NCBI GenBank assembly: GCA_965208575.1
Contig: CBDBOV010000006.1
Span: 461,984-525,983, forward strand
Direction of reading: 5' to 3'
Length of the DNA: 64,000 bases
Origin: Spirochaetia bacterium
GTDB lineage: Bacteria; Spirochaetota; Spirochaetia; SZUA-6; Bin103
Position 1 is the stretch's first letter, and each line of letters begins with the position of its first letter. A program made the position numbers and the translations under genes. The notes beneath the pieces were generated by a model, which worked only from the letters and a program-made list of their open reading frames with translations, ran no database searches and had not been told where the DNA came from. Shown here one piece after another: positions 15,203 through 46,726 of the stretch.

Positions 15203-16201
15203 CTACGAGCCGCAGCGATCCATGCGCGCAAGGAACTCGGCAGTCGTGGCGCAGTCCACGATCCACTCCCCGGTCTCGGCGAGACGATCCGCGTCCGTCA
15301 CTTCAGCAAGCACCGTCGCCAGCCGCTCCGCCGCCGCCGGGCCGAAGCGCCGCTCCGCCAAGCGGCGCAACAACGCCTTCTCCCGCTCAATGCCCCGCTC
15401 GATGCCCTGCTCGATGCCCTGCTCGATGCCCTGCTCCAGGATTTCCGCTCCCCAGCGATCAATCTTTTCCGCCAACACTGCACTTGCCTCCTCGTACTCG
15501 CGGATCGATGGCAACTCCACGCCCCACTTCCGCCCCAGGGCGCCGAGCCACAGGTCAAAGGTCCTCGTCAGCCCCGGCTCGCCTACCTCGGCGAGCCATT
15601 CACCCAACTCCCGCACCCGCTCCGGCAGAGCCCCGACCTGCACGCTCTGCTCCACTTCCGCCACCCACCGTAGCAGGTTCGTCCGTGGCAGATCATCCCC
15701 TCTCACCGCCGCCAGATCAAGCACCTCGTAGCTCAGCGCCAGATGCGCGGCACCGTCTTCCTCCGTCCTTGCCACCAGCCCGGCGAACGTCACCGGCGCG
15801 TCCCACCGTCTATCACCATTGTACACGACCACGTGCAACACCGGGTCGGCCGTGTCGCTCTTGCTCCACCTGGGGCGGTCGTGGTACAGCCGCTGGTACA
15901 GCAGGCTCGTGTAGTTCAGGAACCGCAGCGGCATCGAGTAGTCCACGCTCGACTGATGCTCGATCACCACGTGCAGCGTCTGCACGCCGCCGCGTCCGTC
16001 GCGCCGGTCGATCGACCACACCACGTCACCAAGCCGCCGTCGCAACTCGTCGGTGACGTTCTCGGTGGGGCCTTCGCGCAGGGTGTCGAAGTCGAACGCG
16101 CCGGCCCATCCCGACGGCCGCTGCGGGGCGATGAACCCGATGAGCAAGTCCTTGACGATGCGTTGGTGTGTGAGCAGGGGTTTGTACGCGGGGTCGTCCA
16201 T
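15203..16201 (-). CDS. Rpn/YhgA-like PD-(D/E)XK recombination-promoting nuclease / putative transposase (copy R1, intact)
   Basis: ATG 16201 (MDDPAYKPLLTHQRIVKDLL). Core GDVVWSI...LHVVIEHQSSVDYSMPLRFLNY resembles the YhgA LIEHQS motif. The C-terminal DUF4351-like segment reads ALLRRLAERRFGP. Confidence 0.85.
   Translation of the reverse strand: MDDPAYKPLLTHQRIVKDLLIGFIAPQRPSGWAGAFDFDTLREGPTENVTDELRRRLGDVVWSIDRRDGRGGVQTLHVVIEHQSSVDYSMPLRFLNYTSLLYQRLYHDRPRWSKSDTADPVLHVVVYNGDRRWDAPVTFAGLVARTEEDGAAHLALSYEVLDLAAVRGDDLPRTNLLRWVAEVEQSVQVGALPERVRELGEWLAEVGEPGLTRTFDLWLGALGRKWGVELPSIREYEEASAVLAEKIDRWGAEILEQGIEQGIEQGIERGIEREKALLRRLAERRFGPAAAERLATVLAEVTDADRLAETGEWIVDCATTAEFLARMDRCGS
15383..15436. repeat. 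12-bp in-frame tandem repeat in R1, about 4.5 units, encoding EQGI/ERGI
   Basis: Plus strand shows ccgctcaatgcc ccgctcgatgcc ctgctcgatgcc ctgctcgatgcc. The protein reads EQGIEQGIEQGIERGIERE. Confidence 0.9.
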
Positions 16202-16402
16202 GATTCTCTGCCGGTGGCCGCGCCATCGCAACGACGCGGCGCCATTCGGCGGGGGATTCTAACCTGACCACTTGCGGGGCGGTAGCGCCTCGCGTGAGGT
16301 GCGTGAGGTGATGGTTGTCGGGGCGTTGACGATGGCGAACGCGACCGTATCCGCGCAGACAGGGCAGCCTGATTGTCGGAAAACACATTCGTGAGCCAAG
16401 TG

Positions 16403-16416
16403 TCCGGCGGGCCGGA
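16403..16416 (-). terminator. Conserved short hairpin downstream of the permease tail (TCCGGC-GG-GCCGGA)
   Basis: 6-bp stem. The same motif occurs at 36366..36379 and 40068..40081, with a degenerate copy at 46527..46540. A weak T-rich tract lies ~20 nt downstream, so terminator function is uncertain. Confidence 0.3.
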
Positions 16417-16417
16417 T

Positions 16418-16500
16418 TCAGTGCGATCGTTCCAGCTTCTGCAGGGCCCGGGTGGCGCGCTCGGCGCGGGCGCCTACGCCGCCGGCCACCCCGCCGCACG
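16418..16500 (-). pseudogene. Orphan 3' tail of a DppC-like permease (...GGVAGGVGARAERATRALQKLERSH*)
   Basis: Lies just after the stop codon of the unrelated full-length permC1. Matches the 3' ends of permC2/permC6-type genes. Confidence 0.7.
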
Positions 16501-16505
16501 CTCGC

Positions 16506-17402: not shown

Positions 17403-17435
17403 AGGTAGCGCACTCCGGGGTGCAGCCAAAGAGCC

Positions 17436-21099: not shown

Positions 21100-22083
21100 C
21101 TACGGGCTATCCTTGCGTTCCAGCTTCTGCAGGGCACGGGTGGCGCGCTCGGCGGCGCGGGCGCCTACGCCGCCGGCCACCCCGCGGCCGCCGCGCAGGC
21201 GCGGGTCGAGCAGGTCGCGCAGCGCGTCGCCCACCATGTTCAGGCAGTACACCACCAGCGTCAGCGCCACCCCCGGCCACATCGCCAGCCGCGGCGCCAT
21301 CTCCATGTACTGGCGCCCCTCACGGCTCAGCATCGTGCCCCAGCTCGGCACGTCCGGCGGCAGCCCGAAGCCCAGAAAGCTCAAGGACGCCTCCGCGATG
21401 ATCGCCCAGCCGATGGTGATCGAGTAGATGATGATGATCGGCGCCGTGATGTTGGGCCACACGTGGCGCAGCAGCGTCCGCCACGACGGGCTGCCGATCG
21501 CATGCGCCGCCTCGAAGTAGGCGTTGCCCTTGATCCCGATCACCGCACCCCGCACCACCCGCGAGTTGGCCACCCCGGACGCCAGCGCCAGCATGCCGAT
21601 GATCTGCGGGATGCCCTGGCCGACGATGGTCATGATGGTCAGCAGCAGCAGCAGGCCCGGAAACGACATCCAGGCGTCCACCAGCCGCTGCACCGCCAGG
21701 TCGACCTTGCCGCCCACGAACCCCGCCACCCCGCCGATCAGCAGCGACACCACCACGCTCAGGGTGGTGGCGGCGAACCCCACCCCCAGCGACACCCGCG
21801 CCCCGTACAACAGGCGGCTGAACAGGTCGCGGCCGATGTGGTCGGTGCCCAGCGGGTAGGTGCCGGACGGCCCCTTGAGCCGGTCGATCATGGTCATTTC
21901 CATGAAGTGATACGGCGCCAGCAGGTCGGCGAAGATCGCCACCAGGCACAGCAGCAGCACGACCGCACCGCTGACCGCGCCCACCGGCCGCTCCCTGATC
22001 AGCCGGCGCAGCAGGTCGCGCAGGAACGACTGCCCCTTCACTCCTTTGGCCGGTAGCGCTTGCGGCACGGTCACCTCACCCAT
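21100..22083 (-). CDS. ABC transporter permease, DppC/OppC-like (cassette 2)
   Basis: 327-aa ORF. YPLGTDHIGRDLFSRLLYGARVSL. Ends ...RALQKLERKDSP. Confidence 0.85.
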   Translation of the reverse strand: MGEVTVPQALPAKGVKGQSFLRDLLRRLIRERPVGAVSGAVVLLLCLVAIFADLLAPYHFMEMTMIDRLKGPSGTYPLGTDHIGRDLFSRLLYGARVSLGVGFAATTLSVVVSLLIGGVAGFVGGKVDLAVQRLVDAWMSFPGLLLLLTIMTIVGQGIPQIIGMLALASGVANSRVVRGAVIGIKGNAYFEAAHAIGSPSWRTLLRHVWPNITAPIIIIYSITIGWAIIAEASLSFLGFGLPPDVPSWGTMLSREGRQYMEMAPRLAMWPGVALTLVVYCLNMVGDALRDLLDPRLRGGRGVAGGVGARAAERATRALQKLERKDSP

Positions 22084-22095
22084 AGCGACACCCCG

Positions 22096-23223: not shown

Positions 23224-25029
23224 TCAGGATCCCATCTCGCGCTTCAGATCCTGATCGATCCAGAGGCGGGCGAAGATCGGCATTTTCTGAATATGGCCGA
23301 GATCACCTTCCCCGTTGTAGCCCTTGAGCCATGGCTGGCCGACATTGAACAGGGGAGCTCTCGGCCCCCGTATCACCCATATCCCCTCGGCGATGCGCAG
23401 GTCGGCCTTGCGCGCCCACTCCTGCTGCTCCTCCAGCGTGGTGGCGGTCAGCATGTTCTGGAAGTACTCGTCAAACTCAGCGTCGATGACGTTCTGGTCC
23501 CGCCACCCGCTTGTCGACGACGCATCGGAGATGTCAGAGATCACACCGGGATACTCGGCGCCATGCACATCCGTCCTCAACCCGAGATAGGGACAGTCAA
23601 ACGGGTTCGAACTGCACTCGATGCCCTTCTGCTGGTGTGTCGCGCGGGTAACCTCCTGGATCTCGACGTCGATGCCGATCTTCCTGAGGTAATCCATGGC
23701 GATCTGATAGTAGCCGAGGTCGAAGAACTCGTAGTGTTCGTAGACGGTCTTGAAACGCACGCCGTCCGCGCCGCGCGGAAGGCCGGCCTCGTCCAGCAGC
23801 TTCTCGGCCGCCTCGGGGTCGAACCGATACCACTGCGCGATCTCCTCGGGCCACTCTTCGAACGGCACCGCATACCCGAGCACAGCCCTGCCAAAACCGC
23901 CGACGGGCGTCGTATCGGACCACCCCTGATGGTAGGATTCCGAGATGGCGTCGAAGTCTATGGCCATGTTGAGGGCACGGCGCACGCGGATGTCGTTCCA
24001 AGGTGCGCTCTGGTTGTCAAACGTGAACGCCGTCTCCGCACGAAACGAAAACGTGGAAAACTGCAACTCGGGATTGGTCTCCTGCAGACTCAGGGCCTGG
24101 TCGACGCTGGAGAGGTGCGAGTTCGTTCCCCACCCCATCCAATCCGCCTGCCCAGAGCGCATCAGGGACAGCCTGGTAGCCGGGTCAGAGACGATCAGGA
24201 GCTCGATCTGATCGGCGTAGGGCAAACGGTTGTCGGGGAACTTCTCGTCGAAGCCCCAGTAGTCATCGATCCTGGTGTAGGTCCACGAACTTCCCTCCAC
24301 CACGTCAGTAAGCTGGTAGGGCCCCGTTCCGGTCACGTTGCGCCAGTCTTGAATGTCCCCGAACTGCTCGACGACCTCGCGGGCGACGATGTAGGCATGA
24401 TGAGAAACGGATAGTGTCTTCAAGGCCTCGAGAAAGGGCGCTTTCAACTTGACCACGACCGTGGAATCGTCGGGAGCGGTGATCGAATCCCAGTCCATCT
24501 TAGGCAGCTGTCCGATCCCTAAATCCTGCCCCGGCTCGCCGCCGTCAAAGCCCAGGAGCCGGTTGTAGCTGTATGCGACATCGTGGGCGGTCAGCTGCCG
24601 GCCGTTCACCGGCGCCTTGTCGTGCCAGAACACGTCGTCACGAATCTTGAACACGTAGGTGAGCGGATCCGGGTTCTCCCAGCTCTCAGCCAGCTGTCCG
24701 ATGAGGACCTCGACGGGCAGGTAGAGCGTGTTATAACCGAACACACTCCGGTCGAATGACCAGTCGCCAATGCCCAGCTTCTCGTTGACCAGCCCGATCC
24801 AGCCCCCCGCGGAGTAAACGAAGTAGGGGTCGATGCCCTCCGGCTTGCCGGCGACAAGCAATCTGATCGTGCCGCCATATTCGGGCGCGGTCACCATCTC
24901 GCCGGTGGCCGGGTCGAGCACCATCTCCTTCTCGGCCGCGGCCGCCGGCTGGTCGCTCTCGCCGCTGGCGAACGTAACGGTAGCCACCAGCGCGAACACC
25001 AGCGGCAGCAATAGGAGTCTTGGAGTCAT
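23224..25029 (-). CDS. ABC transporter substrate-binding protein, family 5 (cassette 2)
   Basis: Internal ATG 25029 of ORF 23224..25128, behind GAGGAGGAG. MTPRLLLLPLVFALVATVTFASGE... Confidence 0.85.
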   Translation of the reverse strand: MTPRLLLLPLVFALVATVTFASGESDQPAAAAEKEMVLDPATGEMVTAPEYGGTIRLLVAGKPEGIDPYFVYSAGGWIGLVNEKLGIGDWSFDRSVFGYNTLYLPVEVLIGQLAESWENPDPLTYVFKIRDDVFWHDKAPVNGRQLTAHDVAYSYNRLLGFDGGEPGQDLGIGQLPKMDWDSITAPDDSTVVVKLKAPFLEALKTLSVSHHAYIVAREVVEQFGDIQDWRNVTGTGPYQLTDVVEGSSWTYTRIDDYWGFDEKFPDNRLPYADQIELLIVSDPATRLSLMRSGQADWMGWGTNSHLSSVDQALSLQETNPELQFSTFSFRAETAFTFDNQSAPWNDIRVRRALNMAIDFDAISESYHQGWSDTTPVGGFGRAVLGYAVPFEEWPEEIAQWYRFDPEAAEKLLDEAGLPRGADGVRFKTVYEHYEFFDLGYYQIAMDYLRKIGIDVEIQEVTRATHQQKGIECSSNPFDCPYLGLRTDVHGAEYPGVISDISDASSTSGWRDQNVIDAEFDEYFQNMLTATTLEEQQEWARKADLRIAEGIWVIRGPRAPLFNVGQPWLKGYNGEGDLGHIQKMPIFARLWIDQDLKREMGS

Positions 25030-25236
25030 AACGTAACTCCTCCTCGTTTTCGGGAGACGGGACCGGGTTCCGTCGCCCGTGGTCTTGGACCGGAGACTCC
25101 GGCCTTCTCGAATGGTCCTTGTATTCACGGCGCGGGGTATTGGAGCGGTAGGTGTGGATATGGACGGGAGCCGCTAGCAGCCCGTGGTGGAACCCGGCGT
25201 AGCACCGAGAGCGGCGAGGCGCCCGGCTGGCAAGGC

Positions 25237-27231
25237 GTCCGGGTAGCCCAGGGCGGTTGCCCGCCCCAGGCCCCCACAGTCCCGTGCGAGCGCGATTGAC
25301 GCACACGGTTCCTCAGGTCGTAGAGTTCGCTGCATAGATGGACTGGACGACACGAACGGCCGGCAGCGGATATCGGGCCAGCAACCGCGCAAAGCAGGCC
25401 CACGTGAGGCGTCGTCCACCGCGCCGGTTCAGCCACTTCAACCAGAGGCGCTTGGCGGCGTCGTGGAAGTACCCCAACGAGCGCCCATTGCCGGTAATGC
25501 CGTAATACCCATAGTGGCCCAGCAGCTTGCGCCGGAGGGCCGCTTGCTGCGCCCGCAGAGGCTCGTGCCGATGGCGCTTACACCACACGGCGAGTGCTCG
25601 TAACGCACGGGTCAGCCGGTCGGAGGCGGTTTTCCGCTTCACGATCCACTTCCCGTTGCGCGAGCGCCCCCAATAGTGCGTGAATCCCAAGAATGGAAAA
25701 CTCGCCCCGTGGTGGGCTGTCGCGTTCCCTCCCGGCGGTCGAAACTGAAGCATCCGTGTCTTTTCCTCGTGCACGGTCAACCCGTACTTCGCGAAGCGCT
25801 TTGGTAACACGCGCAGCACGTTCTCGGCATCGCGCCGGTCGCTGAACGTCAGTACCGCATCGTCCGCAAAACGCACCAGGAACGCCCGCCCCCGCAGGCG
25901 CGGTCGGACCACCTCATAGAACCATCGGTCGAGTACCTCGTGCAGATAAACATTGCTGAGCAACGGCGATAGTACGCCACCTTGCGGTGTCCCCTGCTCC
26001 GGGTAGGTCACTGAGCCATCTTCCATGACCCCTGCCTTTAGCCATTTTCCGATCAATCGTGTGATCACTCCATCTCGCATCCGCTGTGCCAGAATCGTGC
26101 GCATGGTAGCGTGTGACAGCGTGTCGAAATACTTTCGTATGTCCAGGTCTATCACCCAACCGCCCCCTTGACCCATCATCTGGTCCCAGAGTGCTTGCAG
26201 CGCCGTGTGCGGCGATCGCTTCGGGCGAAAGCCGTGTGCACAGCTTAGAAAGTCTCGCTCGTACAGGGGCTCAAGCAGCATCTGTACCGCCCGCTGAAGT
26301 ACCTTGTCCTCGAAGGTCGGTATCCCGATCGGGCGGGTTTCTCCGCCCTTCCCTTTCGGAATGTGCGCCCGCCTTACCGGCGGCGCGCGGTACGTTCCCG
26401 CCTTCGCCCGCTCCAGCAGTGATTTCAAATTCTGCTCCAGGTTCTCCCCGTACTGCTCGGCAGTCTGTTCGTCAACTCCAACTGCACCATCCTTCCGGGT
26501 ACGCCGGTAGGCTTCGTACAGCCACTCCAGATCCATGTGATACGCCAGCGACGTGAATGCCACGCCGGCGTGGATTCTCGCGTTCTCTGCTATCTGCTGC
26601 TGTTTCGTTAACACGTTCCCGGATTCCATCGCATCCTCCATGTTTCCCCGCACCAGTTCTACGACTTGACGCCCTCCTTCCCTCCGCCGGGTCCGGTGCG
26701 GCGACCGTTCCCCCGCTTCCTCGGTACTATGGGGGCGCTAAGACTGCTCGTTGCCCTTCCCGCCGCGCTTCGTTGCCTTCGCTTGGCGGTACCACGACCG
26801 CACCCGCTGCTTCGCTCCTGCACGTTCACGGGCGCTCTCCCGTGCAGGCCCGGACGTTGGTGTGCCGGCGTCCCTCCGGCTCTCCCGTCATGGAGACATC
26901 GAGCTCTCCCAGGTTCCTGGGCCACCCGCTCCGCATCTGCCCTGCTCTCCGACCCCGACCGGGCCGCCGTGCCTCGCCATTTCGGCACGTACGGTGCTGC
27001 CCCCGCATTGTCGACTACGAAGGCCCCAGCGAGCTTTCTCCTTTCGAGGCTCAATCACACGGCTTCTGCGGTCGCTGTCTACGCTTCGCCCTCAGGGTCG
27101 CCCCTGCCGACGCAAGACTCGCTTCCGGCTGCTTGCTATGCTTTACCGGATGGGATTGGCTACCCACGGGGTGGCTAAGAAAGGTTTCTGATGTCTATTT
27201 CATCTTCCTCCTTCCCCAGGCTTGGCCTGGC
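25237..27231 (-). mobile_element. Group II intron (about 2.0 kb) with intron-encoded RT/maturase
   Basis: Boundaries come from comparison with the intron-less paralogous site (43405..43651). A domain VI-like hairpin at 25241..25275 has a GCAA loop and a bulged A (25244) 7 nt from the ...GGAC 3' end. A domain V-like hairpin lies at 25282..25308. The 5' junction lacks GUGYG; the nearest GUGUG is at 27060..27056. Confidence 0.7.
25313..26653 (-). CDS. Group II intron reverse transcriptase/maturase (no endonuclease domain)
   Basis: 446-aa ORF with RPIGIPTFEDKVLQRAV, GTPQGGVLSPLLSNVYL, VRFADDAVL (the YADD box reads FADD) and a maturase-like tail FLGFTHYWGRS...LLGHYGYYG. Confidence 0.85.
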   Translation of the reverse strand: MRGNMEDAMESGNVLTKQQQIAENARIHAGVAFTSLAYHMDLEWLYEAYRRTRKDGAVGVDEQTAEQYGENLEQNLKSLLERAKAGTYRAPPVRRAHIPKGKGGETRPIGIPTFEDKVLQRAVQMLLEPLYERDFLSCAHGFRPKRSPHTALQALWDQMMGQGGGWVIDLDIRKYFDTLSHATMRTILAQRMRDGVITRLIGKWLKAGVMEDGSVTYPEQGTPQGGVLSPLLSNVYLHEVLDRWFYEVVRPRLRGRAFLVRFADDAVLTFSDRRDAENVLRVLPKRFAKYGLTVHEEKTRMLQFRPPGGNATAHHGASFPFLGFTHYWGRSRNGKWIVKRKTASDRLTRALRALAVWCKRHRHEPLRAQQAALRRKLLGHYGYYGITGNGRSLGYFHDAAKRLWLKWLNRRGGRRLTWACFARLLARYPLPAVRVVQSIYAANSTT

Positions 27232-27511
27232 GCGACGACGAACGAGCATATCCGGGCGCAGGAGTCTGTCGGGTGACGACAGGCTCCTGCGCGCAGGTTG
27301 GGATGGGCCGAAAGCGGCGTCCGTTGGACGGCGCTTTCGGGGCGATATGTGAGCGAGGAGCAAACGCAGCCAGCCGGGATGGATCGCCGCTCGAATGCAG
27401 CCGGAGCTCCACCACGGGCTGCTCGGTCGTCAGCGGCGCGGATGGTGGCAGAGCGGTGGACGTGGCTCGGTGGGCGTAGCGAACGGTCAGTTACCGGGTG
27501 CTTGGTTTGTT

Positions 27512-27530
27512 GGACGGAGCAGGACGGAGC
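27512..27530. repeat. Leader 10-bp tandem repeat GGACGGAGCA, about 2 units (L2)
   Basis: Read directly: ggacggagca ggacggagc. Confidence 0.8.
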
Positions 27531-27771
27531 GCTGGCGCTTGCAGCGAACCGGCGGCTGCGGCGGGCTGTGCAATCGCGCTTCATCCGCGCTTGTCCTCCT
27601 CCCGGAGCCATCACTCTACCACACGCCCGGCCACCGTCAAGCCGCCGCATTGACTCATCGAAAATCTAACCGTAGCGAAAGCATGCCTCATCTAAAAATC
27701 TAACCGAACGGGCTGGACCTTCCGGGTCCGGTTGGAGCCTCTCCGAGGGACGTGAGGAGGTTCCGGAGGAG

Positions 27772-29046: not shown

Positions 29047-29090
29047 CCCTCTCAGGCGGGTCTGACGGTCGATAATCGGAGAATGGGCGG

Positions 29091-31139: not shown

Positions 31140-31506
31140 GTCACCAGCACCGAAGTCGCCTCCAGACCCGTCCGCCCCCTCTTCGGTCAGCGACACGACA
31201 CGGCACCGACCACCTCCCTGCCGTTGACGCCTCCTCATCCGCGCCGACCAACCAGATACGCCCCCGGTCGCGTTGGTGTGCTTGAATCAACCCGGCCGGT
31301 CGCCCAGCAGCCTATCCACTTATCCACAATTTATGAGTCTCCCCCCTCGCGCTCCCCCCTCGTTCTCCGCCTCCCTTTCGGTTAGATTCTTACGTGAGGC
31401 ACGCTCACCGTAAGGTTAGATTTTTACGTGAGGCAATAGGGCCGCGGAAGTGGAGCGTGCGGTCGCGAGCGGATATGCGCTGGAGAACTGCTTTGGCGTG
31501 GCCGGG

Positions 31507-32369: not shown

Positions 32370-32525
32370 TGTCGGCTCTCAGATTGATCTGAGCGGAATG
32401 GGGGCGGACGTCTCACGATCGACTGGAGTGGAGGACGGGAGAGTCGAGGTAAACTGACCAGAAAAACAGGGTAGCTGCCCCAGGTGATGAGAACCGGACA
32501 GCTACCCTGAACTAAGGACAGCCGA

Positions 32526-33137: not shown

Positions 33138-33418
33138 GCACGGTGCTGGTCGCGGGGTGCCGGCTCAGACCGGGCAAGTGGCTGGTGAGCAGTGCAGGAG
33201 GACGCCGCCGCGGTGCTGGCGAGCGCCTTTGGCGCTTGGGTGGCTGTCCGGGCGACGCTGCGGGCAGGGCGCTGGTGGCGCGGCTGATCATGATCGGAGC
33301 GGAGAAAATAACGCGAACTGGCGCCTGGGTGACCCCAAGCCTACCGGATCTTTGCGGTGATCGGCGAACCAATGGGGAGCAAATTGATGCCACCAACACC
33401 CCAGGAGGTTCCTCGATC

Positions 33419-34735: not shown

Positions 34736-35562
34736 TCGACCTCAGACATGCCTTCGGTTTCCAACGCGATCCGTTCCCCCAGGACGTCCCGATCAACGGT
34801 CTGTACCCGATCCCGGGCCTGAAAGCGCTCACCGAGCGCTTTCAGTATGCCCTCGGGCTCGGCCTCATCACCGTCATCACCGGCGAGGTGGGAGCGGGAA
34901 AATCCACTTCCCTGCGCCATGTCACGAGCACCCTGCACCCCGCCGAATACCGTCTCCTGGCGGTCATCGCCACCACCGGCACGCTGCTCGACCTGCTGCG
35001 CCAGATCTGCCTGGAGATGGGCACCCCCCCGCGCTCCTCACTGGCCGTCCTCAGCCGCACCGTGCGCGACCTGCTGACCGACATCAGGCGCAAGAAGCAG
35101 ACCCCGTTGCTGGTCGTCGACGAGGCACATCTGCTCCGCTTCGAGGTGTTCGCACAGCTCCACACTCTCACTCAGTTCGCCTTCGATTCGCAGACCTTGA
35201 TGCCGATGGTGCTGGCCGGCCAGAGCAGCCTGCTTGACCGCCTGTTGTTCCATACCTCGCGCCCGCTCGCCTCACGGGTCGTGGGCCGCAGCCACCTCGA
35301 TGCTCTCTCCCTTGATGACATGCGCGGCTACCTCGACCACCATCTGCAGCTCGCCGCCGGGCGGGACACCCAGTCCGCCACAGCGCGGCGCAGCGCCGAC
35401 CTGCTCAGCGACGAAGCCGCCGTCGCCATCCATCAGGGCTCCGGCGGGCTCCTGCGGCGCGCCAATCATCTCGCCCGCGGCGCCCTCATGGCGGCCGCTC
35501 GCGAGCATTGCTCGGTGGTCGCCGCCGAGCATGTCCGGCTCGCTGCCACCGAGATTCTGTAG
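34732..35562 (+). CDS. AAA ATPase, ExeA/TniB-like transposition helper
   Basis: Walker A ITGEVGAGKSTS, Walker B LLVVDEAHLL. The start overlaps the transposase stop (ATGA). Confidence 0.8.
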   Translation: MIDLRHAFGFQRDPFPQDVPINGLYPIPGLKALTERFQYALGLGLITVITGEVGAGKSTSLRHVTSTLHPAEYRLLAVIATTGTLLDLLRQICLEMGTPPRSSLAVLSRTVRDLLTDIRRKKQTPLLVVDEAHLLRFEVFAQLHTLTQFAFDSQTLMPMVLAGQSSLLDRLLFHTSRPLASRVVGRSHLDALSLDDMRGYLDHHLQLAAGRDTQSATARRSADLLSDEAAVAIHQGSGGLLRRANHLARGALMAAAREHCSVVAAEHVRLAATEIL

Positions 35563-35571
35563 GTCGGTTCC

Positions 35572-35886
35572 GTGATCAACGTCGCTATCAGAAAAATCGC
35601 CGGCAGCGACCGCGAATACTTCGCCTACGCCAGGACGTTCGCCGGTCGCGCCACCTACTTCGTGTATTTCCGTGATGACATCTGGGGCGCCATGGTGCTG
35701 CACAACTTCACCGACATGCTGCGCGCCGTGTTCCAGAACTCACCCGTCAAGCTGACTCTCGTCGAACAGGAACTCTCTCTCAAACATCCTGCCGTTCTCG
35801 GCTTCCTGAGACAATCTCCTGAGGACCCCTCAGCACCACCGACAGGAGATCTCGCCCGCGGCCACCGGCAACCCGGTGCAGAATAA
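35572..35886 (+). CDS. Hypothetical 104-aa protein, last ORF of the transposon
   Basis: GTG-initiated ORF only. No recognisable motif. Its position inside the element is the only support. Confidence 0.3.
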   Translation: MINVAIRKIAGSDREYFAYARTFAGRATYFVYFRDDIWGAMVLHNFTDMLRAVFQNSPVKLTLVEQELSLKHPAVLGFLRQSPEDPSAPPTGDLARGHRQPGAE

Positions 35887-35940
35887 TATGGTGTCCAGAT
35901 TACCGTGCGAAAAAACAGCAGAATTACGTGAGACCCAACA

Positions 35941-36165
35941 CGTGTGCACGCCGCCGCGCCCGTCGCGCCGGTCGATCGACCACACCACGTCACCGAGCCG
36001 CCGCCGCAACTCGTCGGTGACGTTCTCGGTGGGGCCTTCGCGCAGGGTGTCGAAGTCGAACGCGCCGGCCCATCCCGACGGCCGCTGCGGGGCGATGAAC
36101 CCGATGAGCAAGTCCTTGACGATGCGTTGGTGTGTGAGCAGGCGTTTGTACGCGGGGTCGTCCAT
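35941..36165 (-). pseudogene. Rpn/YhgA-like nuclease copy R2, 5' part
   Basis: MDDPAYKRLLTHQRIVKDLLIGFIAPQRPSGW...SIDRRDGRGGVH, then the transposon junction. Confidence 0.85.
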
Positions 36166-36380
36166 GATTCTCTGCCGGTGGCCGCACCATCGCAACGACG
36201 CCGCGCCATTCGGCGGGGGATTCTAACCTGACGACCTGCGGGGCGGTAGCGCGTCGCGTGAGGTGCGTGAGGTGATGGTTGTCGGGGCGTTGACGATGGC
36301 GAACGCGACCGTATCCGCGCAGACAGGGCAGCCGATTGTCGGAAAACACATTCGTGAGCCAAGTGTCCGGCGGGCCGGAT

Positions 36381-37153
36381 TCAGTGCGATCGTTCCAGCT
36401 TCTGCAGTCCTACCAGCGTCACCACTGGGATCAGCGCGTTCTTGATCACGTGGCGCAGGATCACCAGCCGCTCGCGCAGGCCCTTGGCCCAGGCGGTGCG
36501 AATGTAGTCCTGCCGCAGCACCTCCAGCATCATGGTGCGGGTCATGCGCATGGTGCTGGCTGCCAGGTAGGTGCCCAGGATCAGGCCCGGCACGATGAAC
36601 ATGCTCAAGTGGCGCACCGGGTCGTCGCTCAGCCGCAACGGCGGCGACCACGCCCACCAGATGGCCGGAAACACCAGGATGATGGTGGCCAGCCAGAAGT
36701 TGGGCGTGGCCAGTCCAAAGATGGCGAAGGAGCGCCCCACGTAGTCTCCCACCGTGTCCTGCCGCACCGCCGAGTAGATGCCGATCGGCACCCCGATCAG
36801 GAGCCCCAAGATCACCGCCACCAAGCCCAATTCGATGGTGGCCGGAGCCGGCCGGCGATCAGCTCGCCGACCGGCTCCGGCCGCAGCATCGGCGTGCCCA
36901 GATCGCCGCGCAGCAGCAGGATGCCGCCCATCCAGCGGCCGTACTGCACGTGTACGGGCACATCCAGCCCCAGCCGCCGCTCCAGCTCCGGGCGGTCGAT
37001 TCCGCTACCGCCACCTGATGTCATCACCATCCTCGACAGGAGGATGTCGATAGCATCGCCGGGTATGAACCGCACGGACAGGAACACCAGAATCGTCAGC
37101 AAGAAGAAGGTGGGAATCAGCAGCAGGACGCGGCGGACGACGTACGCTCTCAT
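36381..37153 (-). pseudogene. DppB-like permease (cassette 3): frameshifted and fused at its middle to the last 6 codons of a DppC-like permease
   Basis: The N-terminal part is in ORF 36812..37153 and the rest in ORF 36381..36830, a different frame. The sequence ends ...VVTLVGLQ|KLERSH*, so the distal third of permB and all of permC are missing. Confidence 0.8.
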
Positions 37154-39311: not shown

Positions 39312-39353
39312 GCGAGCGGATACGCGCAGGAGAACTGCTTTGGCGTGGCCGGG

Positions 39354-40007
39354 CCAAGAGCCGGAGCGATCGATGCGCGCAAGGAACTCGGCAATCGTGG
39401 CGCAGTCCACGATCCACTCTCCGGTTTCGGCGAGACGATCCGCGTCCGTCACTTCAGCAAGCACCGTCGCCAGCCGCTCCGCCGCCGCTGGGCCGAACCG
39501 CCGCTCCGCCAAGCGGCGCAACAACGCCCTCTGCCGCTCGATGCCCTGCTCCAGGATTTCCGCTCCCCAGCGATCAATCTTTTCCGCCAACACTGCGCTT
39601 GCCTCCTTGTACTCGCGGATCGATGGCAACTCCACGCCCCACTTCCGTCCCAGGGCGCCGAGCCACAGGTCAAACGTCCTCGTCAGCCCCGGCTCGCCAG
39701 CCTCGGCGAGCCACTCACCCAACTCCCTCACGCGCTCTGGCAGAGCCCCGGCCTGCACGCTCTGCTCCACTTCCGCCACCCACCGTAGCAGGTTCGTCCG
39801 TGGCAGATCATCCCCTCTCACCGCCACAGATCAAGCACCTCGTATCTCAGCGCCAGATGCGCGGCGCCGTCCTCCTCCGCCCTCGCCAGCAGCCCGGCGA
39901 ACGTCACCGGCGCGTCCCACCGTCTGTCACCATTGTACACGACCACGTGCAACACCGGGTCCGCCGTGTCGCTCTTGCTCCACTTGGTGCGGTCATGGTA
40001 CAGCCGC
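39354..40007 (-). pseudogene. Rpn/YhgA-like nuclease copy R3 (N-terminal deletion, frameshift near 39828, stop TAG changed to TGG)
   Basis: C-terminal part is in ORF 39069..39827 with a single EQGI unit. The middle part is in ORF 39818..40585. The 5' end is fused to the Rpn upstream spacer at about 40007. Confidence 0.75.
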
Positions 40008-40170
40008 GACCGTATTCGCGCAGACAGGGTAGCCGATTGTCGGAAAACACATTCGGTGAGCCAAGTGTCCGGCGGGCCGGATTCAGTGCGATCGTTCCAG
40101 CTTCCGCAGGGCATGTGCCGGGATCGAGCCGGGAATCTGTATCTGGTAGTCGATTGATCCGGTCCAAAGG

Positions 40171-40497
40171 CTAGCGGACCGCATGGACTCTGAGGTGAAG
40201 CCCTTCGCGTTTCTGAAGGCAGCCGATGACCTCGAACAGGTTGCGGGCCTGCGGATTGCCGTTGGGTCCGAACATCCGCATCAGGCTCTTCGGCGATTTG
40301 TCGGTCAACCCGCCAAGTTCCTGAAAGCCGATCGTTGCATTGATGTAGTCGCGGAGCACGACCTTGCCCGTATCCACATCGCCGGAAAGCAGGCAATCGA
40401 CCCCCTCTTTGAGCAGCTCCTCCCGGAAAGCCGGATCGCTCTCCATGCGTGCCTGAATTGTTTCCTTGAAGTCTCGTGTCAGGGACATGAGTCTCAC
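40171..40497 (-). CDS. HTH antitoxin partner of a Gp49/RelE-like toxin (HigA-like)
   Basis: [55 protein letters not shown]...[16 protein letters not shown]. The start could also be 40488. Confidence 0.65.
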
Positions 40498-40668
40498 CTC
40501 TCCCGCTGCTTGCGCCGCTTGTAGTCCCGCCAGATATCCTTGGCGGTTTCGATTGCCTGCTGCTGACGCTTCTTGGTTCCACCACCCAACAAGATGATCA
40601 CGGCATTTCCATCCTTACCAAAATAGACCCGGTAGCCGGGACCGAAGTCTATCCGGGATTCAAAGACT
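40494..40668 (-). pseudogene. C-terminal fragment of a Gp49-like/RelE-ParE-family addiction-module toxin
   Basis: [45 protein letters not shown]. The N-terminal ~50 aa are replaced by a permease fragment. Confidence 0.65.
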
Positions 40669-40758
40669 CTCCGCGATGATCGCCCAGCCGATGGTGATCG
40701 AGTAGACGATGATGATCGGCACCGTGATGTTGGGCCACACGTCGCGCAGCAGCGTCCG
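40669..40758 (-). pseudogene. Internal fragment of a DppC-like permease
   Basis: Matches permC2 around 21390..21480. Same upstream breakpoint (cgtccg|agcgctgggga) as the fragment ending at 45069. Confidence 0.7.
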
Positions 40759-40844
40759 AGCGCTGGGGACCACGCGCCGTTACTTCGCCAAGCCATACGC
40801 CGCCATCTTTGTACCAGTGGTAGTTGCCGGCAGCGCCTCCAAGG

Positions 40845-41474: not shown

Positions 41475-43259
41475 CTAGTAGCCCAGCTCCCGCTTCAGCT
41501 CCTGGTCCACCCACAGGTACATGAGGACAGTGGACCGTTGCATCGCGCCGAGTTCGCCTTCCCCGTTGTAGCCCTTGATCCACGGCTGGGTGGCGCCGAA
41601 CAGGGGAGCGATCGGCCCCCTGATCATCCACAGCTGCTCGGCGACCCGCAGGTCGGCCTTCCGCACCCACTCCTTCTGCTCCTCTATCGTGGTGGCGGCC
41701 AGCGCGTTCTCGTAGTACTCGTCGAACACGGGGTCGTTGTTGTTCGCGGGATTCCAAGCGCTTTGCGACCAGTAACCCCCGAGCGGGGCCGTGGCACTTT
41801 GATACTCGGCGGCCCATACGTCGGTGCGCAGACCGAGGTAGGTCTGCTCCAGGGACATCTCGATGTGTTCCGCGCGGGTAACGCCCTGGATCTCGACGTC
41901 GATGCCGATCTGCCTGATGTAATCCATGGCGATCTGGTAGTAGCCGAGGTCGAAGAACTCGTAATGCTGATAGACGGTACTGAAGCGAACGCCGTCGTCA
42001 CCGCGCGGATAGCCGGCCTCGTCGAGTAGCCTCTCCGCCTCCTCGGGGTCGTACCGATAGTACTGCTTGACCTCATCGGGCCATTCCTCGAACGGGACCG
42101 TATACCCGAGGACCGCTTTTCCAACAGGGCCGACCGGGCTTGCATCGCCCCAACCCTGCTGGTAGTTCTCGGCGATGGACTCTTGGTCGATGGCCAGGCT
42201 CAGGGCCTGGCGCACGCGGATGTCGCTCCAGGGCTCCTTCTGGACGTTGAAACCGATCGCCGTTTCCGAACGGTAGGCATACGGGTGCAGCACCAGGTCG
42301 GGATTGGTCTTCTGCAGATTGACCGCCGAGTCGACACTGGTCAGATGGGAGTTGAGCCCGAACCCGATGAAGTCCGCCTGTCCGGAGCGCATCAGTGAGG
42401 TGATGGCGGTCGGGTCGTTGACGATGAGGTACTCGACCGTGTCCGCGTAGGGCAGGCGATAGTCGGGATACTTGGGGTCGAAGCCCCAGTAGTCATCGAT
42501 CCTGGTGTAGGTCCAGGAGCTGCCCTCCACCACGTCGGTGAGCTGGTAGGGCCCCGTTCCGGTCACGTTGCGCCAGTCTTGCATGTCCCCGAATTGGTCG
42601 ACCACCTCGCGGGCGACCACGAACGTATGTAACCCGTAGAGCATGGTCCTCAGGGCAAGGAGACTGGGCTCGCTCAACTTGAATACCACGGTAAAATCGT
42701 CGGTGGCGGTTACCGACTCGAACGGGATCGTGCCGACTTCAGACCCCCCGATATCCGGGCTCGGCTCGCCGCCGTCCACACCCCAGACGAGCCGCTGCCA
42801 GCTGTACTCGACGTCGTGCGCGGTGAGCTGCCGGCCGCTCACCGGTGCCTTGTCGTGCCAGAACACGCCGTCGCGGATCTTGAACACGTAGGTAAGCGGA
42901 TCCGGATTCTCCCAGCTCTCGGCCAGTTGTCCGGTGATGGCCTCATCGGGCAGGAACAGCGTGGTGTAGCCGACCACGCTCCGGTCGATCGCCCAGTCGG
43001 CGATGCCGAGCTTCTCGTTGACCAGCCCGATCCAGGCCCCTGCGGTGTAGCGGTAGTAGGGGTCGATTCCCTCGTTCTTGAAGTTCACGACCGCTCTGAT
43101 CGTGCCGCCATACTCGGGCGCGGTGACCATCTCGCCGGTCGTCGGGTCGAGCACCATCTCCTTCTCGGTGGCGGCCGCCTCCTCGCCCTCGCCGGCGGCG
43201 AACGTAACGGTAGCCACCAACGCGAACACCAGCGCCGGCAGTATGAGTCTTGGAGTCAT
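41475..43259 (-). CDS. ABC transporter substrate-binding protein, family 5 (cassette 4, no permeases)
   Basis: Internal ATG 43259 of ORF 41475..43433. MTPRLILPALVFALVATVTFAAGEGEEAAATEKEMVLDPTTGEMV. Confidence 0.85.
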   Translation of the reverse strand: MTPRLILPALVFALVATVTFAAGEGEEAAATEKEMVLDPTTGEMVTAPEYGGTIRAVVNFKNEGIDPYYRYTAGAWIGLVNEKLGIADWAIDRSVVGYTTLFLPDEAITGQLAESWENPDPLTYVFKIRDGVFWHDKAPVSGRQLTAHDVEYSWQRLVWGVDGGEPSPDIGGSEVGTIPFESVTATDDFTVVFKLSEPSLLALRTMLYGLHTFVVAREVVDQFGDMQDWRNVTGTGPYQLTDVVEGSSWTYTRIDDYWGFDPKYPDYRLPYADTVEYLIVNDPTAITSLMRSGQADFIGFGLNSHLTSVDSAVNLQKTNPDLVLHPYAYRSETAIGFNVQKEPWSDIRVRQALSLAIDQESIAENYQQGWGDASPVGPVGKAVLGYTVPFEEWPDEVKQYYRYDPEEAERLLDEAGYPRGDDGVRFSTVYQHYEFFDLGYYQIAMDYIRQIGIDVEIQGVTRAEHIEMSLEQTYLGLRTDVWAAEYQSATAPLGGYWSQSAWNPANNNDPVFDEYYENALAATTIEEQKEWVRKADLRVAEQLWMIRGPIAPLFGATQPWIKGYNGEGELGAMQRSTVLMYLWVDQELKRELGY

Positions 43260-43404
43260 AACGTAACTCCTCCTCGTTGTCGGGCACGGGACCGCGTCCC
43301 GTGCCCGTGATCTTGGACCGGAAACTCCGGCCATCTCGAGTGGTCCTGGTGGTCGCGCCGTGGAATGGTAGAGCGGCGGGTGTGGATATGGACGAGAGCC
43401 GCTA

Positions 43405-43651
43405 GCAGCCCGTGGTGGAACCCGGCGTAGCACCGAGAGCGGCGAGGCGCCCGGTTGGCAAGGCGCGAAGAACGAGCATATCCGGGCGCAGGAGTCTGTC
43501 GGGTGACGACAGGCTCCTGCGCGCAGGTGAGGATGGGCCGAAAACGGCGTCCATTGGACGACGGTTTCGGGGCGATACGTGAGCGAGGAGCAACGCAGCC
43601 AGCCGGGATGGATCGCCGCTCGAATGCAGCCGGAGTTCCGCCACGGGCTGC
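43405..43651 (-). mobile_element. 247-bp TIR-bounded non-coding element, copy B (uninterrupted)
   Basis: Left end gcagcccgtggtggaacccgg. The complement of the right end reads gcagcccgtggcggaactccgg (19/21). The element is absent from the leaders at 39241, 51320, 56390 and 60738, where the flanks join. It contains long internal hairpins. Confidence 0.65.
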
Positions 43652-43740
43652 TCGGTCGTCAGCGGCGCGGATGGCGACAGAGTGGTGGACGTGGCTCGGT
43701 GAGCGGAGAGAGCGGTCAGTTACCGAGTGCTTGGTTTGTT

Positions 43741-43758
43741 GCGGAGCAGGACGGAGCG
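43741..43758. repeat. Leader 10-bp repeat, about 1.5 units (L4)
   Basis: gcggagcaggacggagcg. Confidence 0.7.
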
Positions 43759-44164
43759 TTAGCGTTTGCAGCGAACCGCGCCCGCGGCGGGCTGTGTAAT
43801 CGCGTTTCATCCGCGCTTGTCCTCCTCCGGGAGGCCACCACGCTAGCACACGCCCCGACCACCGTCAAGCACGCGTTTGGAGGGTTGGCGGGTTGGTGGT
43901 TGCCACAGTTCCTCGGAGCATATTCTACGCCGCTTCCAGTCGTGACCTGGATCCGTTCAGTTGCAACGACGGGTCATACCCTACGGCTGCAAGACGCGTA
44001 ACCGCTCGACACCGGGTTCACAAGACAACGGCCGTTCCGAAAGGGATCAGCAGGAGGACGCAGCGGATGGCGTACGCTCTCACGGCAATGGAGACGATTG
44101 TTACGACAAGCGGGACCGTGAGACGAACCCTCAGCGTGGTCGGTGCGTGGTGACGCGCTTGTCG

Positions 44165-44422: not shown

Positions 44423-44671
44423 TTACAATCTCCTCCTTTCGTCGCTCGATGATTCGCTGGATCTCTCTCGATTCGTGGGCCCTGATGCCATTGACATTGC
44501 CAATTCGACGTCCGGGTCGAGCGAGAATTTCGCCTCGCCGCTTGCGCAGATCACGTGCACGTGGATTCGCGCTTCTTCCCGTGAGAAGAAGAACCGATAC
44601 GGACCCTCCCTGAACACAGTCGGGCTCCCGTGAGTGAGTATAGCGTCCCTGGAAGCCTGACAGTAGGGCAC
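44394..44671 (-). pseudogene. DUF4160-domain protein, frameshifted
   Basis: PTVFREGPYRFFFSREEARIHVHVICASGEAKFSLDPDVELA is in ORF 44423..44671. The continuation NVNGIRAHESREIQRIIERRKEEIVNAWNQHF is in ORF 44394..44723. Confidence 0.6.
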
Positions 44672-44685
44672 GGTCTGATGACGGA

Positions 44686-45069
44686 CTACCGGCTATCCTT
44701 GCGTTCCAGCTTCTGCAGGGCACGGGTGGCGCGCTCGGCGGCGCGGGCGCCTACGCCGCCGGCCACCCCGCCGCCGCCGCGCAGGCGCGGGTCCAGCAGG
44801 TCGCGCAGCGCGTCGCCGACCATGTTCAGGCAGTACACCACCAGCGTCAGCGCCACCCCCGGCCACATCGCCATCCGCGGCGCCATCTCCATGTACTGCC
44901 GCCCCTCGCGGCTCAGCATCGTGCCCCAGCTCGGCACGTCCGGCGGCAGCCCGAAGCCCAGGAAGCTCAAGGACGCCTCCGCGATGATCGCCCACCCGAT
45001 CGTGATCGAGTAGATGATGATGATGATCGGCGCCGTGATGTTGGGCCACACGTGGCGCACCAGCGTCCG
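44686..45069 (-). pseudogene. 3' ~125 codons of a DppC-like permease
   Basis: RTLVRHVWPNITAPIII...LDPRLRGGGGVAGGVGARAAERATRALQKLERKDSR. The 5' breakpoint is identical to that of 40669..40758. Confidence 0.8.
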
Positions 45070-45295
45070 AGCGCTGGGGACCACGCGCAGTTACTTCGCC
45101 AAGCCATACGCCGCCATCTTGTTCGAGTGGTAGTTGCCGGCAAGAGAGGAGCCTCCCGCCGCACCCCGCGCGGACGCGGAGCAAGTACTTAGGCCTCGCC
45201 GCTCCGCGCTTGCCCTGTGTGGATGTCGGGCGACCGATACGAACGCCGCTAAGGACGATGGATATGTGTCGGAGAAGTGGCCTGGCGTGGCCGGG

Positions 45296-46318
45296 CTACG
45301 AGCCGGAGCGATCGATGCGCGCAAGGAAGTCGGCAGTCGTGGCGCAGTCCACGATCCACTCCCCGGTCTCGGCGAGACGATCCGCGTCCGTCATCTCGGC
45401 AAGCACCGTCGCCAGCCGCTCCGCCGCCGCAGGGCCGAACCGCCGCTCCGCCAAGCGGCGCAACAACGCCTTCTGCCGCTCGATGCCCTGCTCGATGCCC
45501 TGCTCGATGCCCTGCTCGATCCCCTGCTCGATGCCCTGCTCGATCCCCTGCTCCAGGATTTCCGCTCCCCAGCGATCAATCTTTTCCGCCAACACTGCAC
45601 TTGCCTCCTCGTACTCGCGGATCGATGGCAGCTCCACGCCCCACTTCCGCCCCAGGGCGCCGAGCCACATGTCAAAGGTCCTCGTCAGCCCCGGCTCGCC
45701 AGCCTCGGCGAGCCACTCACCCAACTCCCTCACCCGTTCCGGCAGAGTCCCGGCCTGCACACTCTGCTCCACTTCCGCCACCCACCGTAGCAGGTTCGAC
45801 CGTGGCAGACCATCACCCCTCACCGCCACCAGATCAATCACCTCGTAGCTCAGCGCCAGATGCGCGGCACCGTCCTGCTCCGTCCGCTCCACCAGCCCGG
45901 CGAGCGTCATCGGCGCGTCCCACCGGTTGTCTCCATTGTACACGACCACGTGCAACACCGCGTCGGCCGTGTCGCTCTTCCTCCACTTGGTGCGGTCATG
46001 GTACAGCCGCTGGTACAGCAGGCTCGTGTAGTTCAGGAACCGTAGCGGCATCGAGTAGTCCACGCTCGACTGATGCTCGATCACCACGTGCAGCGTGTGC
46101 ACGCCGCCGCGCCCGTCGCGCCGGTCGATCGACCACACCACGTCACCAAGCCGCCGCCGCAACTCGTCGGTGACGTTCTCGGTGGGGCCTTCGCGCAGGC
46201 TGTCGAAGTCGAGAGCGGCGGCCCATCCCGACGGCCGCCGCGGGGCGATGAACCCGAGGAGCAAGTCCTTGACGATGCGTTGGTGCGTGAGCAGGCGTTT
46301 GTACGCGGGGTCGTCCAT
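45296..46318 (-). CDS. Rpn/YhgA-like PD-(D/E)XK nuclease (copy R4, intact)
   Basis: ATG 46318 (MDDPAYKRLLTHQRIVKDLL) in ORF 45296..46348. LHVVIEHQSSVDYSMPLRFLNY. Six EQGI units. Confidence 0.85.
   Translation of the reverse strand: MDDPAYKRLLTHQRIVKDLLLGFIAPRRPSGWAAALDFDSLREGPTENVTDELRRRLGDVVWSIDRRDGRGGVHTLHVVIEHQSSVDYSMPLRFLNYTSLLYQRLYHDRTKWRKSDTADAVLHVVVYNGDNRWDAPMTLAGLVERTEQDGAAHLALSYEVIDLVAVRGDGLPRSNLLRWVAEVEQSVQAGTLPERVRELGEWLAEAGEPGLTRTFDMWLGALGRKWGVELPSIREYEEASAVLAEKIDRWGAEILEQGIEQGIEQGIEQGIEQGIEQGIERQKALLRRLAERRFGPAAAERLATVLAEMTDADRLAETGEWIVDCATTADFLARIDRSGS
45477..45553. repeat. 12-bp in-frame tandem repeat in R4, about 6 units
   Basis: The protein reads EQGIEQGIEQGIEQGIEQGIEQGIERQ. 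Confidence 0.9.
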
Positions 46319-46541
46319 GGTTCTCTGCCGGTGGCCGCGCCATCGCAACGACGCCGCGCCATTCGGCGGGGGATTCTAACCTGACGACTTGCGGGGCGGT
46401 AGCGCCTCGCGTGAGGTGCGTGAGGTGCGTGAGGTGATGGTTGTCGGGGCGCTGACGATGGGGTACGCGACCGTATCCGCGCAGACAGGGCAGCCGATTG
46501 TCGGAAAGACGTTCGTGAGCCAAGTGTGCGGCGGGCCGGAT

Positions 46542-46716
46542 TCAGTGCGATCGTTCCAGCTTCTGCAGGGCACTGGTGGCGCGGTCGGCGGCGCGGGCGC
46601 CTACCCCGCCGGCCAGCGAGCCGCCGCCGCGCACGCGCGGGTCCAGCAGTTCGCGTAGCGCGTCGCCGACCATGTTCAGGCAGTACACCACCAGGGTCAG
46701 CGCCACCCCCGGCCAC
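46542..46716 (-). pseudogene. Orphan 3' tail (~57 codons) of a DppC-like permease
   Basis: Matches permC 3' ends (...VYCLNMVGDAL...ALQKLERSH*). Upstream it abuts a truncated uxaA-like gene. Confidence 0.75.
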
Positions 46717-46726
46717 CGACGAGCAC

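Follow-up and report, generated by a model that had tools for sequence, protein, structure and literature searches.

Why do four copies of one nuclease gene in a single stretch of bacterial DNA all carry the same displaced piece of a permease gene ahead of them? The stretch, hereafter called the window, comprises 64,000 nucleotides (nt) of a Spirochaetia bacterium genome (contig CBDBOV010000006.1, positions 461,984 to 525,983). The genes are rpn genes, here named R1 through R4, and they encode Rpn/YhgA-like nucleases. Each is preceded by a module that includes the tail of a DppC-like permease gene, a palindrome, a spacer and, in three of the four copies, a 9-nt repeat. A first-pass annotation of the window took this pattern for a discrete mobile or duplicating element, or alternatively for a sign that the nuclease attacks the permease end and seeds rearrangements. 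We propose that the four rpn copies and their flanks are probably duplication fossils of one founder, copied by ordinary DNA-level processes.

The rpn genes and their upstream module

The four genes lie as follows:

15203-16201, minus strand: R1, an intact rpn gene for a 332-amino-acid RpnL-type PD-(D/E)XK nuclease (PF04754, 67.7 bits)
31507-32369, minus strand: R2, the 3′ part of an rpn gene split by a transposon (PF04754, 49.9 bits)
35941-36406, minus strand: R2, the 5′ part (35941-36165) and its upstream flank (sequence alignment, exact string search)
39318-40113, minus strand: R3, a decayed rpn copy (sequence alignment)
45296-46318, minus strand: R4, an intact rpn gene for a 340-amino-acid protein (PF04754, 71.8 bits)

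PF04754 matches, open reading frames (ORFs) and alignments agree with the first-pass annotation on the number, the coordinates and the condition of these genes. Three of the four (R1, R2 and R4) pass the Pfam gathering cut-off of 21 for PF04754 (Transposase_31). The four units are mutually 92-98% identical, and therefore are true homologous copies rather than chance matches. Taking the transposon (32370-35940) and one of the two 5-bp duplicates out of R2 restores an intact ORF of 360 codons. R3 lacks the stretch that matches R4 positions 46466-46010 (a 456-bp internal deletion ending at about rpn codon 105) and is further damaged by a frameshift and a mutated stop codon; its right flank meets a binding-protein gene leader at 39311.

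The window also holds an array of paralogous import cassettes, each composed of genes for an SBP_bac_5 binding protein (SBP), a DppB-like permease (permB) and a DppC-like permease (permC), in the dpp-like order SBP-permB-permC. Four stretches bear directly on the origin of the upstream module:

16202-16497, minus strand: upstream flank of R1, including the rpn 5′ region (alignment, string search)
46319-46716, minus strand: upstream flank of R4 (alignment, string search)
42395-42466, minus strand: internal segment of the SBP gene 41475-43658, homologous to the spacer (81.6% identity) and ending in ...ATCACCTCAC
52363-53409, minus strand: intact type-2 permC ending in ...ALQKLERSR and a stop codon, representative of the gene family from which the tail derives

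Exact string searches place the palindrome, the 9-nt repeat and the tail where they had first been reported, and nowhere else in the window. Specifically, the palindrome occurs at 16403, 36366, 40068 and, in degenerate form, 46527; CGTGAGGTG occurs at 16293/16302, 36257/36266 and 46410/46419/46428; and the permC tail with its stop codon is found at 16418, 36381, 40083 and 46542. Read outward from the gene, the flank of R1 holds two copies of CACCTCACG (16292-16310), an SBP-gene relic (~16303-16379) and the palindrome (16403-16416); beyond these come ~80-90 nt of a type-2 permC tail, which starts 8 nt past the stop codon of the gene permC1. At R2, two 9-mers (36256-36274) come first, then the SBP relic and the palindrome at 36366. 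Last is a permC tail of 26 nt, which is joined in frame with the middle of permB3 through a CTGCAG microhomology. R3 has a 30-nt tail, the palindrome at 40068 and part of the SBP relic, and its tail stands isolated beside a RelE-like toxin-antitoxin pair. R4 has three 9-mers (46409-46436), the SBP relic (46429-46504), the degenerate palindrome at 46527 and the longest permC tail (46542-46716, 175 nt, ~57 codons). This tail adjoins a 60-codon N-terminal fragment of GD_AH_second (UxaA-type), a borderline match at 26.4 bits versus a cut-off of 27.3. All four tail contexts match the earlier description, except that permC1, which had been called unrelated, is a diverged permC paralog (65-75% identity).

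Where do the pieces of the module come from? The first-pass annotation regarded the tail as an orphan, and it does travel with the rpn gene rather than with the adjoining permease, but its origin is not that of an orphan. Two intact permC genes, at 52363-53409 and 21100-22095, have 3′ ends that match the R4 tail at 92-95% identity (92.0% for 46716-46542 versus 52537-52363), and other permC fragments also match this tail. At L009, a locus in a related genome, an intact permC is followed directly by a homologous palindrome and CTTGGCTCAC, so the palindrome is permC’s own downstream sequence. The spacer (46504-46429) is 81.6% identical over 76 nt (E = 2e-14) to the SBP coding segment 42466-42395, and it likewise matches three further SBP paralogs and SBP genes in relatives. 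We therefore rejected the spacer as a functional module, as it is a relic of SBP coding sequence. The last 8 nt of this relic match the first CACCTCACG repeat and, because the SBP segment ends in ...ATCACCTCAC, that first repeat coincides with the end of the relic. The module is a decayed cassette junction joined to rpn, with the 9-nt repeat exactly at the joint.

A role for the palindrome as a terminator or other structured signal was also considered. Its RNA is predicted to form a 5-bp stem with a 4-nt loop (-9.3 kcal/mol), and 141 of 200 shuffled sequences fold at least as well (z = 0.44). The palindrome is not followed by a T-tract, and a terminator scan of 45150-46800 returned 0 sites. 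We rejected this role because the palindrome folds no better than shuffled sequences and lacks a T-tract. Nor did the proposal that tail and hairpin form a nuclease target hold up, given that the pieces are cassette-junction relics and the palindrome is thermodynamically ordinary. It is likely that the tail, the hairpin and the spacer are passive, hitchhiking flanks that mark common descent rather than signals, and that the unit has no defined ends.

One further sequence is found near these tails. A ~50-nt element termed X (GGACCGGnTCAATCGACTACCAGATACAGATTCCCGGCTCGATCCCGGCA) occurs in the window at 40116-40166 and in three related loci (L015, 11424-11470; L041, 15381-15428; L044, 3310-3361). 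In the relatives it usually lies ~40 nt past the stop codon of a type-2 permC, and in the window it lies upstream of the R3 tail, such that the order is permuted.

One founder and its ragged descendants

The permC/SBP-relic and SBP-relic/rpn junctions are identical in R1, R2, R4 and L041, which is an rpn locus of a close relative. R3 keeps the first of these junctions, and its internal deletion has removed the second. Independent insertions beside permC tails would not recreate identical composite junctions, and the copies therefore descend from one composite founder. Among ~30 related rpn copies that we compared from related Spirochaetia assemblies, the full module is found beyond the window only at L041, where the neighbouring cassette is 97.2% identical to that of the window. 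L044 carries the SBP relic only and lies outside any cassette. L042, L049 and L051-L060 (89-93% nt identity) begin at a single CACCTCACG, and L043, L045 and L046 begin 15 nt ahead of the rpn ATG. The P0121 locus, which an AAA_22 gene and a Uma2 fragment flank in at least 10 assemblies, begins at a single CACCTCACG without the module, and the same holds for its paralog L042. When species-representative genomes were scanned, 18 loci (L001-L018; 63-85% protein identity) came up in large Spirochaetia metagenome-assembled genomes. Here homology to the R4 unit (81-86% nt identity) starts no earlier than ~90-100 nt upstream of the ATG and no later than the ATG, and 11 of the 18 loci have no dpp-like cassette within 6 kb. 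Scans of JGI metagenomes with patterns for the SBP relic and for the rpn 5′ region gave no matches, nor did look-ups of the exact R1 and R4 proteins in sequence collections. Thus, the module is scarce, and rpn copies that lack the tail and the hairpin are found in close relatives, at L001-L018 and at the P0121 locus.

The ends of the copies are ragged and nested. Relative to the permC stop codon, left ends lie at ~-190/-175 (R4), ~-100 (L041), ~-90 (R1), -30 (R3) and -26 nt (R2), and other copies start at the beginning of the SBP relic (L044), at the 9-mer or 15 nt before the rpn ATG. The left breakpoint is different in every founder-derived copy. Counted from the rpn stop codon, right ends lie at +640, +480, +380, +290, +64, +37, +36 and +16 nt. 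No terminal inverted repeats were seen in the flank alignments of the copies inspected, and no target-site duplications at any junction inspected; the tandem CACCTCACG copies stand on one side only. Hence, of the first-pass proposal, duplication of the unit stands; its discreteness and mobility gain no support, because flank alignment reveals ragged ends, with neither shared boundaries nor the repeats and duplications of an inserting element. Rpn copies free of tail and hairpin, and flanks with no common ends, are the two outcomes that the first-pass annotation had itself named as refuting its proposal, and both are seen.

How might such a set have arisen? In the founder, rpn and ~95 nt upstream of it would have become joined to a decayed cassette junction. 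What was left of that junction would have been the closing portion of a type-2 permC with its native palindrome, and 76 nt of the SBP gene that came next. Segmental or tandem duplication, together with illegitimate, microhomology-level joining and gene conversion between copies, would then have multiplied this founder, and later deletions and insertions would have trimmed each copy differently. This order of events is one that we infer; trimming toward the gene may reflect a deletion bias and a need to keep the upstream region.

Several junctions carry the marks of such processes. L056 and L042, on one contig, have a 2.1-kb duplicated segment in common. The AAA_22 gene of L043 and L045 is found downstream rather than upstream of rpn, a permuted order that is expected at a tandem-duplication joint. 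The CTGCAG at the left junction of R2 occurs in intact permB paralogs as well as in the permC tail, and a ~1.4-kb deletion between two such sites would yield the in-frame fusion. R1 is a mosaic in which the 5′ part is nearest to R2 (97.7%) and the 3′ flank is as in R4, which points to exchange between copies. The right flank of R4 is orthologous to that of L015.

Five observations weigh against a history of ordinary duplication. First, the Rpn units (92-98%) are more alike than the adjoining SBP genes (~80-88%). The units therefore were not simply co-duplicated with their neighbours, and either independent copying or gene conversion is needed; whole-cassette duplication that included rpn is not enough on its own. 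Second, five independent left breakpoints lie within ~190 nt of the permC stop codon, which is tighter than random deletion alone predicts. Third, the right junctions of flank types a and c, which are independent, fall within 1 nt of each other after the sequence CATATCC. Fourth, three rpn copies in a single related genome, L009, L010 and L012 (OZ253572.1, ~5900-7030), are 96.6-97.9% identical over ~1.1 kb and have a left end common to within 1-2 nt, amid unrelated flanks and with right ends that differ. Finally, a reconstruction that took L041, L015 and L044 as outgroups yielded no full order of events. The common left end of the fourth case could stem from gene conversion among old paralogs. 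More generally, these outlying patterns may be due to gene conversion, to selection that keeps the gene and its upstream region, and to deletion bias.

Some of the same observations would suit a discrete mobile element, in which an rpn block from ~95 nt before the ATG to ~20-36 nt past the stop codon moves autonomously or by a one-ended process and carries along its upstream flank in the manner of ISCR/IS91 elements. The three copies just described are gene-sized, dispersed and sharply bounded in unrelated contexts; the left boundary recurs near -95 across subfamilies; and the point at which right-flank types a, b and c part lies at CATATCC or beside it. However, to our knowledge no autonomous transposase has the Rpn fold, and, as noted above, neither inverted repeats nor target duplications were seen at any copy. 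The left end is not constant among the founder-derived copies, the right ends are not fixed (+16 to +640), and several copies demonstrably lie within larger segmental duplications. The recurring -95 boundary can be an ancient limit of homology: gene conversion acts only within shared homology and therefore sharpens old boundaries. A genome-wide survey likewise found no evidence for rpn transposition (PMC10400941). We consider a mobile element extremely improbable.

A related candidate was a fixed 3′ end combined with variable 5′ ends, as might result from one-ended transposition or from retro-copying by the reverse transcriptase of a nearby group II intron. This candidate was rejected because flank types b and b′ have 28 nt in common past CATATCC, and in other copies the downstream flank extends for 290-640 nt.

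Could the cassettes themselves have guided the copies into place? In a homing-like form of gene conversion, shared homology to the left (the permC tail) and to the right (the SBP leader) would let a junction that bears rpn convert one that does not. Type-2 permC tails and SBP leaders do repeat along the array at 88-95% identity, an SBP promoter/leader follows R2, R3 and the L041 copy, the copies are mosaics, and R3 is missing from L041 at an otherwise collinear position. Yet all four left joints in the window are non-homologous (X|tail, permB|tail, permC1 stop codon + 8 nt|tail, and uxaA′|permC) and are not crossovers inside a resident permC tail, and L044 lies outside any cassette. This process would account for the homogenization of the copies and not for their placement, and as an explanation of the locus it is very doubtful.

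A final alternative assigns an active role to the protein. RpnL would break DNA in or near its own locus, and RecA-independent microhomology repair would copy rpn with a variable flank and leave fusions and deletions in the array. RpnA is a weak DNA endonuclease that raises RecA-independent recombination (PMC5350276), and RpnL has been speculated to initiate recombination that duplicates rpn and expands its repeats (PMC10400941). The joints are illegitimate or at the level of microhomology (e.g. CTGCAG at R2, and CACCTCAC, present both where the SBP relic ends and at the rpn block’s left end), left breakpoints gather near rpn, and the short templated SBP patch at the founder junction would suit template switching. 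Against this, RpnA has little or no sequence specificity, such that a preferred cut at permC 3′ ends is not expected (PMC5350276). Microhomology joints are a general signature of illegitimate recombination and are not specific to Rpn, and the clustering of breakpoints is biased by ascertainment, since only copies that keep rpn are recognized. Moreover, permC breakpoints and fusions also occur with no adjoining rpn gene, at 56946 (joined to a Fic-like fragment), 44663-45142 and 40660-40832. The suggestion in the first-pass annotation that the nuclease seeds the rearrangements, which the literature had already raised (PMC10400941; PMC5350276), thus finds no direct support here, and we regard an Rpn-driven origin as unlikely. 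A more specific version, in which RpnL breaks and microhomology-mediated template switching constitute an Rpn-dependent, RecA-independent copy-and-paste process in this lineage, with the founder flank as the tracer of at least 10 copy events, is decidedly improbable. If true, it would provide the first natural series of junctions documenting the multiplication of rpn defence genes.

A rearrangement-prone cassette array

The surroundings of the rpn genes are consistent with frequent rearrangement. The window has a G+C content of 65.5%, and from ~16.5 to 61 kb it is occupied by some nine of the paralogous import cassettes, every one on the minus strand. No ATPase gene was noticed among the cassettes, although no systematic check was made. 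The array is broken up by insertion sequence (IS)-like elements, a group II intron, a Tn7/Tn5053-like transposon, and toxin-antitoxin/Abi modules, and gene fragments and fusions are numerous. Overall, the paralogous cassettes form an array prone to rearrangement, and toxin-antitoxin and defence genes lie at its cassette junctions. Two insertions affect R2 and its right side:

32370-35940, plus strand: Tn7/Tn5053-like transposon inside R2, 3.6 kb, with ends TGT..ACA and the 5-bp target duplication CGTGT (profile matches)
27642-31448, no strand assigned: IS-like insertion between R2 and the SBP promoter/5′ fragment 27222-27641 (transposase domains, L041 comparison)

Within the transposon, rve and Mu-transpos_C domains are encoded by a TnsB/TniA-like gene at 33110-34735; an ATPase gene of the AAA_22 type (34684-35562) and two further ORFs are also present. 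A similar pair of rve and AAA_22 genes is seen at L042 (4876-7178). The IS-like insertion includes an rve gene (27676-29046), a Transposase_29 gene (29189-30871) and the subterminal repeats GGTTAGATTnTTACGTGAGGCA. At L041 an R2-type right flank runs straight into sequence equal to that of the window from 27641 onward, which is the SBP promoter, and because this relative is uninterrupted there the IS-like element is a later insertion. The group II intron lies upstream of the SBP gene 23224-25173, with an RVT_1 ORF at 25313-26653 and an RF02005 (D1-D4) RNA domain at 26943-27159.

Junctions between cassettes, both in the window and in relatives, are often filled by toxin-antitoxin/Abi modules (40171-40796, 14315-14940 and 51773-52338 in the window, and the gene tables of L041 and L044). 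These include a RelE/ParE-like toxin with its partner, PemK, PhdYeFM/PIN, AbiEii remnants and Rpn itself. The layout recalls the toxin-antitoxin-stabilized cassette arrays of superintegrons, and no attC-like sites were seen. The SBP genes are preceded by a conserved region (27418-27641, 43647-43900, 51286-51540, 56360-56560 and 60697-60880) that holds TTGACGG-17 nt-TAGAGT, a strong GGGAGGAGGA ribosome-binding site, a short ATGAAGCGCGAT... leader whose frame is not conserved, and a 10-nt CCGTCCTGCT repeat of variable number. This region may be a regulatory leader.

The breakpoint at 56946 marks the end of permC homology in a chimeric ORF (56775-57572), in which a SoFic-like C-terminal fragment follows a permC N-terminus (OppC_N). 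A plus-strand gene at the array’s edge (61551-63407) encodes a 618-amino-acid protein with AAA-ATPase_like and PDDEXK_9 domains, another PD-(D/E)XK nuclease.

The RpnL/RpnS family and comparable systems

What kind of gene has been multiplied? Although the proteins score 25-28 bits against the NCBIfam model TIGR01784, below its cut-off of 52.1, NCBI calls a 91%-identical protein (P0042) an Rpn family member. D11, D63, E82, H83, Q84, R94 and D165 are invariant when RpnA is aligned with R1, R4, P0001, P0002 and L009, and D11, D63, E82 and Q84 are essential catalytic residues of RpnA (PMC5350276). PADLOC returned only a weak partial match, to a ‘putative invertase’. Inside each rpn gene a 12-nt tandem repeat encodes (IEQG)n, in numbers that differ between the copies:

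R1 15385-15436, minus strand: 4.3 copies (sequence)
R2 31689-31824, minus strand: 11.3 copies (sequence)
R4 45478-45553, minus strand: 6.3 copies (sequence)

R3 retains one copy. In the P0001 cluster, which groups proteins at 90% identity around the closest relative, full-length members range from 324 to 364 residues in steps of four. As read from the sequence, a GTG lies 13 codons ahead of the first repeat, preceded by GAGGAGG and an 8-nt gap, and is a plausible candidate for an internal RpnS start. In known RpnS proteins, the repeats begin 8-20 residues after the internal start (PMC10400941). A promoter scan of the rpn upstream region found no consensus promoter, and a TAGAAT box was noted by eye only.

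RpnL/RpnS genes form toxin-antitoxin phage defence systems with a variable four-amino-acid repeat (PMC10400941). By these sequence features, the four Rpn genes are paralogs of an RpnL/RpnS-type gene, which is predicted to encode a toxic PD-(D/E)XK endonuclease and an intragenic antitoxin. A function in defence would follow by analogy with the published family.

The likeness to the E. coli representatives (RpnA-E and RpnP2; Zhong et al. 2023, PMC10400941) covers the PF04754 domain with D11/D63/E82/Q84, the C-terminal helical domain with a 12-nt/four-amino-acid repeat present in differing copy numbers, and, plausibly, the candidate internal start. It extends to genomic habit, in that the genes are multi-copy, lie among toxin-antitoxin and Abi genes, and have variable duplication ends without inverted repeats or target duplications. 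By contrast, the window belongs to a high-GC soil Spirochaetia lineage, its proteins are only ~23% identical to RpnA and fall below the cut-offs of the NCBIfam Rpn models, and the repeat is IEQG in up to 11 copies. Furthermore, the C-terminal domain that follows the repeats varies by subfamily, such that L009, L010 and L012 differ from the window copies.

Other known processes resemble the locus in part. Duplication by illegitimate recombination has several features in common with the locus: gene order is permuted, ends are ragged and nested left and right, one joint has 6 nt of microhomology, and in-frame fusions arise by chance. The locus departs from it in that the copies are more alike than neighbouring genes and the breakpoints gather near the gene, a difference from simple duplication that suggests gene conversion and selection on top. 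One-ended transposition of ISCR/IS91 elements has a superficial likeness, with a variable upstream flank and a recurrent breakpoint just downstream of the gene. However, the protein is PF04754 rather than HUH, the downstream end varies, ori/ter-like ends are missing, and several rpn copies are parts of larger duplications. Free-standing homing endonuclease genes are also copied with flanking markers among homologous sites, whereas the joints described here are non-homologous with no evident specific target, and the Rpn nucleases that have been tested lack sequence specificity (PMC5350276).

In published rpn genes, neither inverted repeats nor target duplications are found and the ends of the regions vary; arrays arise by tandem direct duplication, and a transposase function is unlikely (PMC10400941). 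The locus fits this picture of rpn genes spread by duplication and not by transposition, and it extends the picture to high-GC soil Spirochaetia. Under the RpnL/RpnS model, each copy with its own repeat number would be a separately matched toxin-antitoxin pair. The recurring pattern of tail, hairpin and Rpn gene can be read as a scar of shared ancestry, which removes a false lead in which it was the end of a mobile element or a nuclease recognition site. Regardless of the precise course of events, the traceable flank of the founder makes individual copy events and their junctions readable, and could thereby aid the study of how rpn genes multiply.

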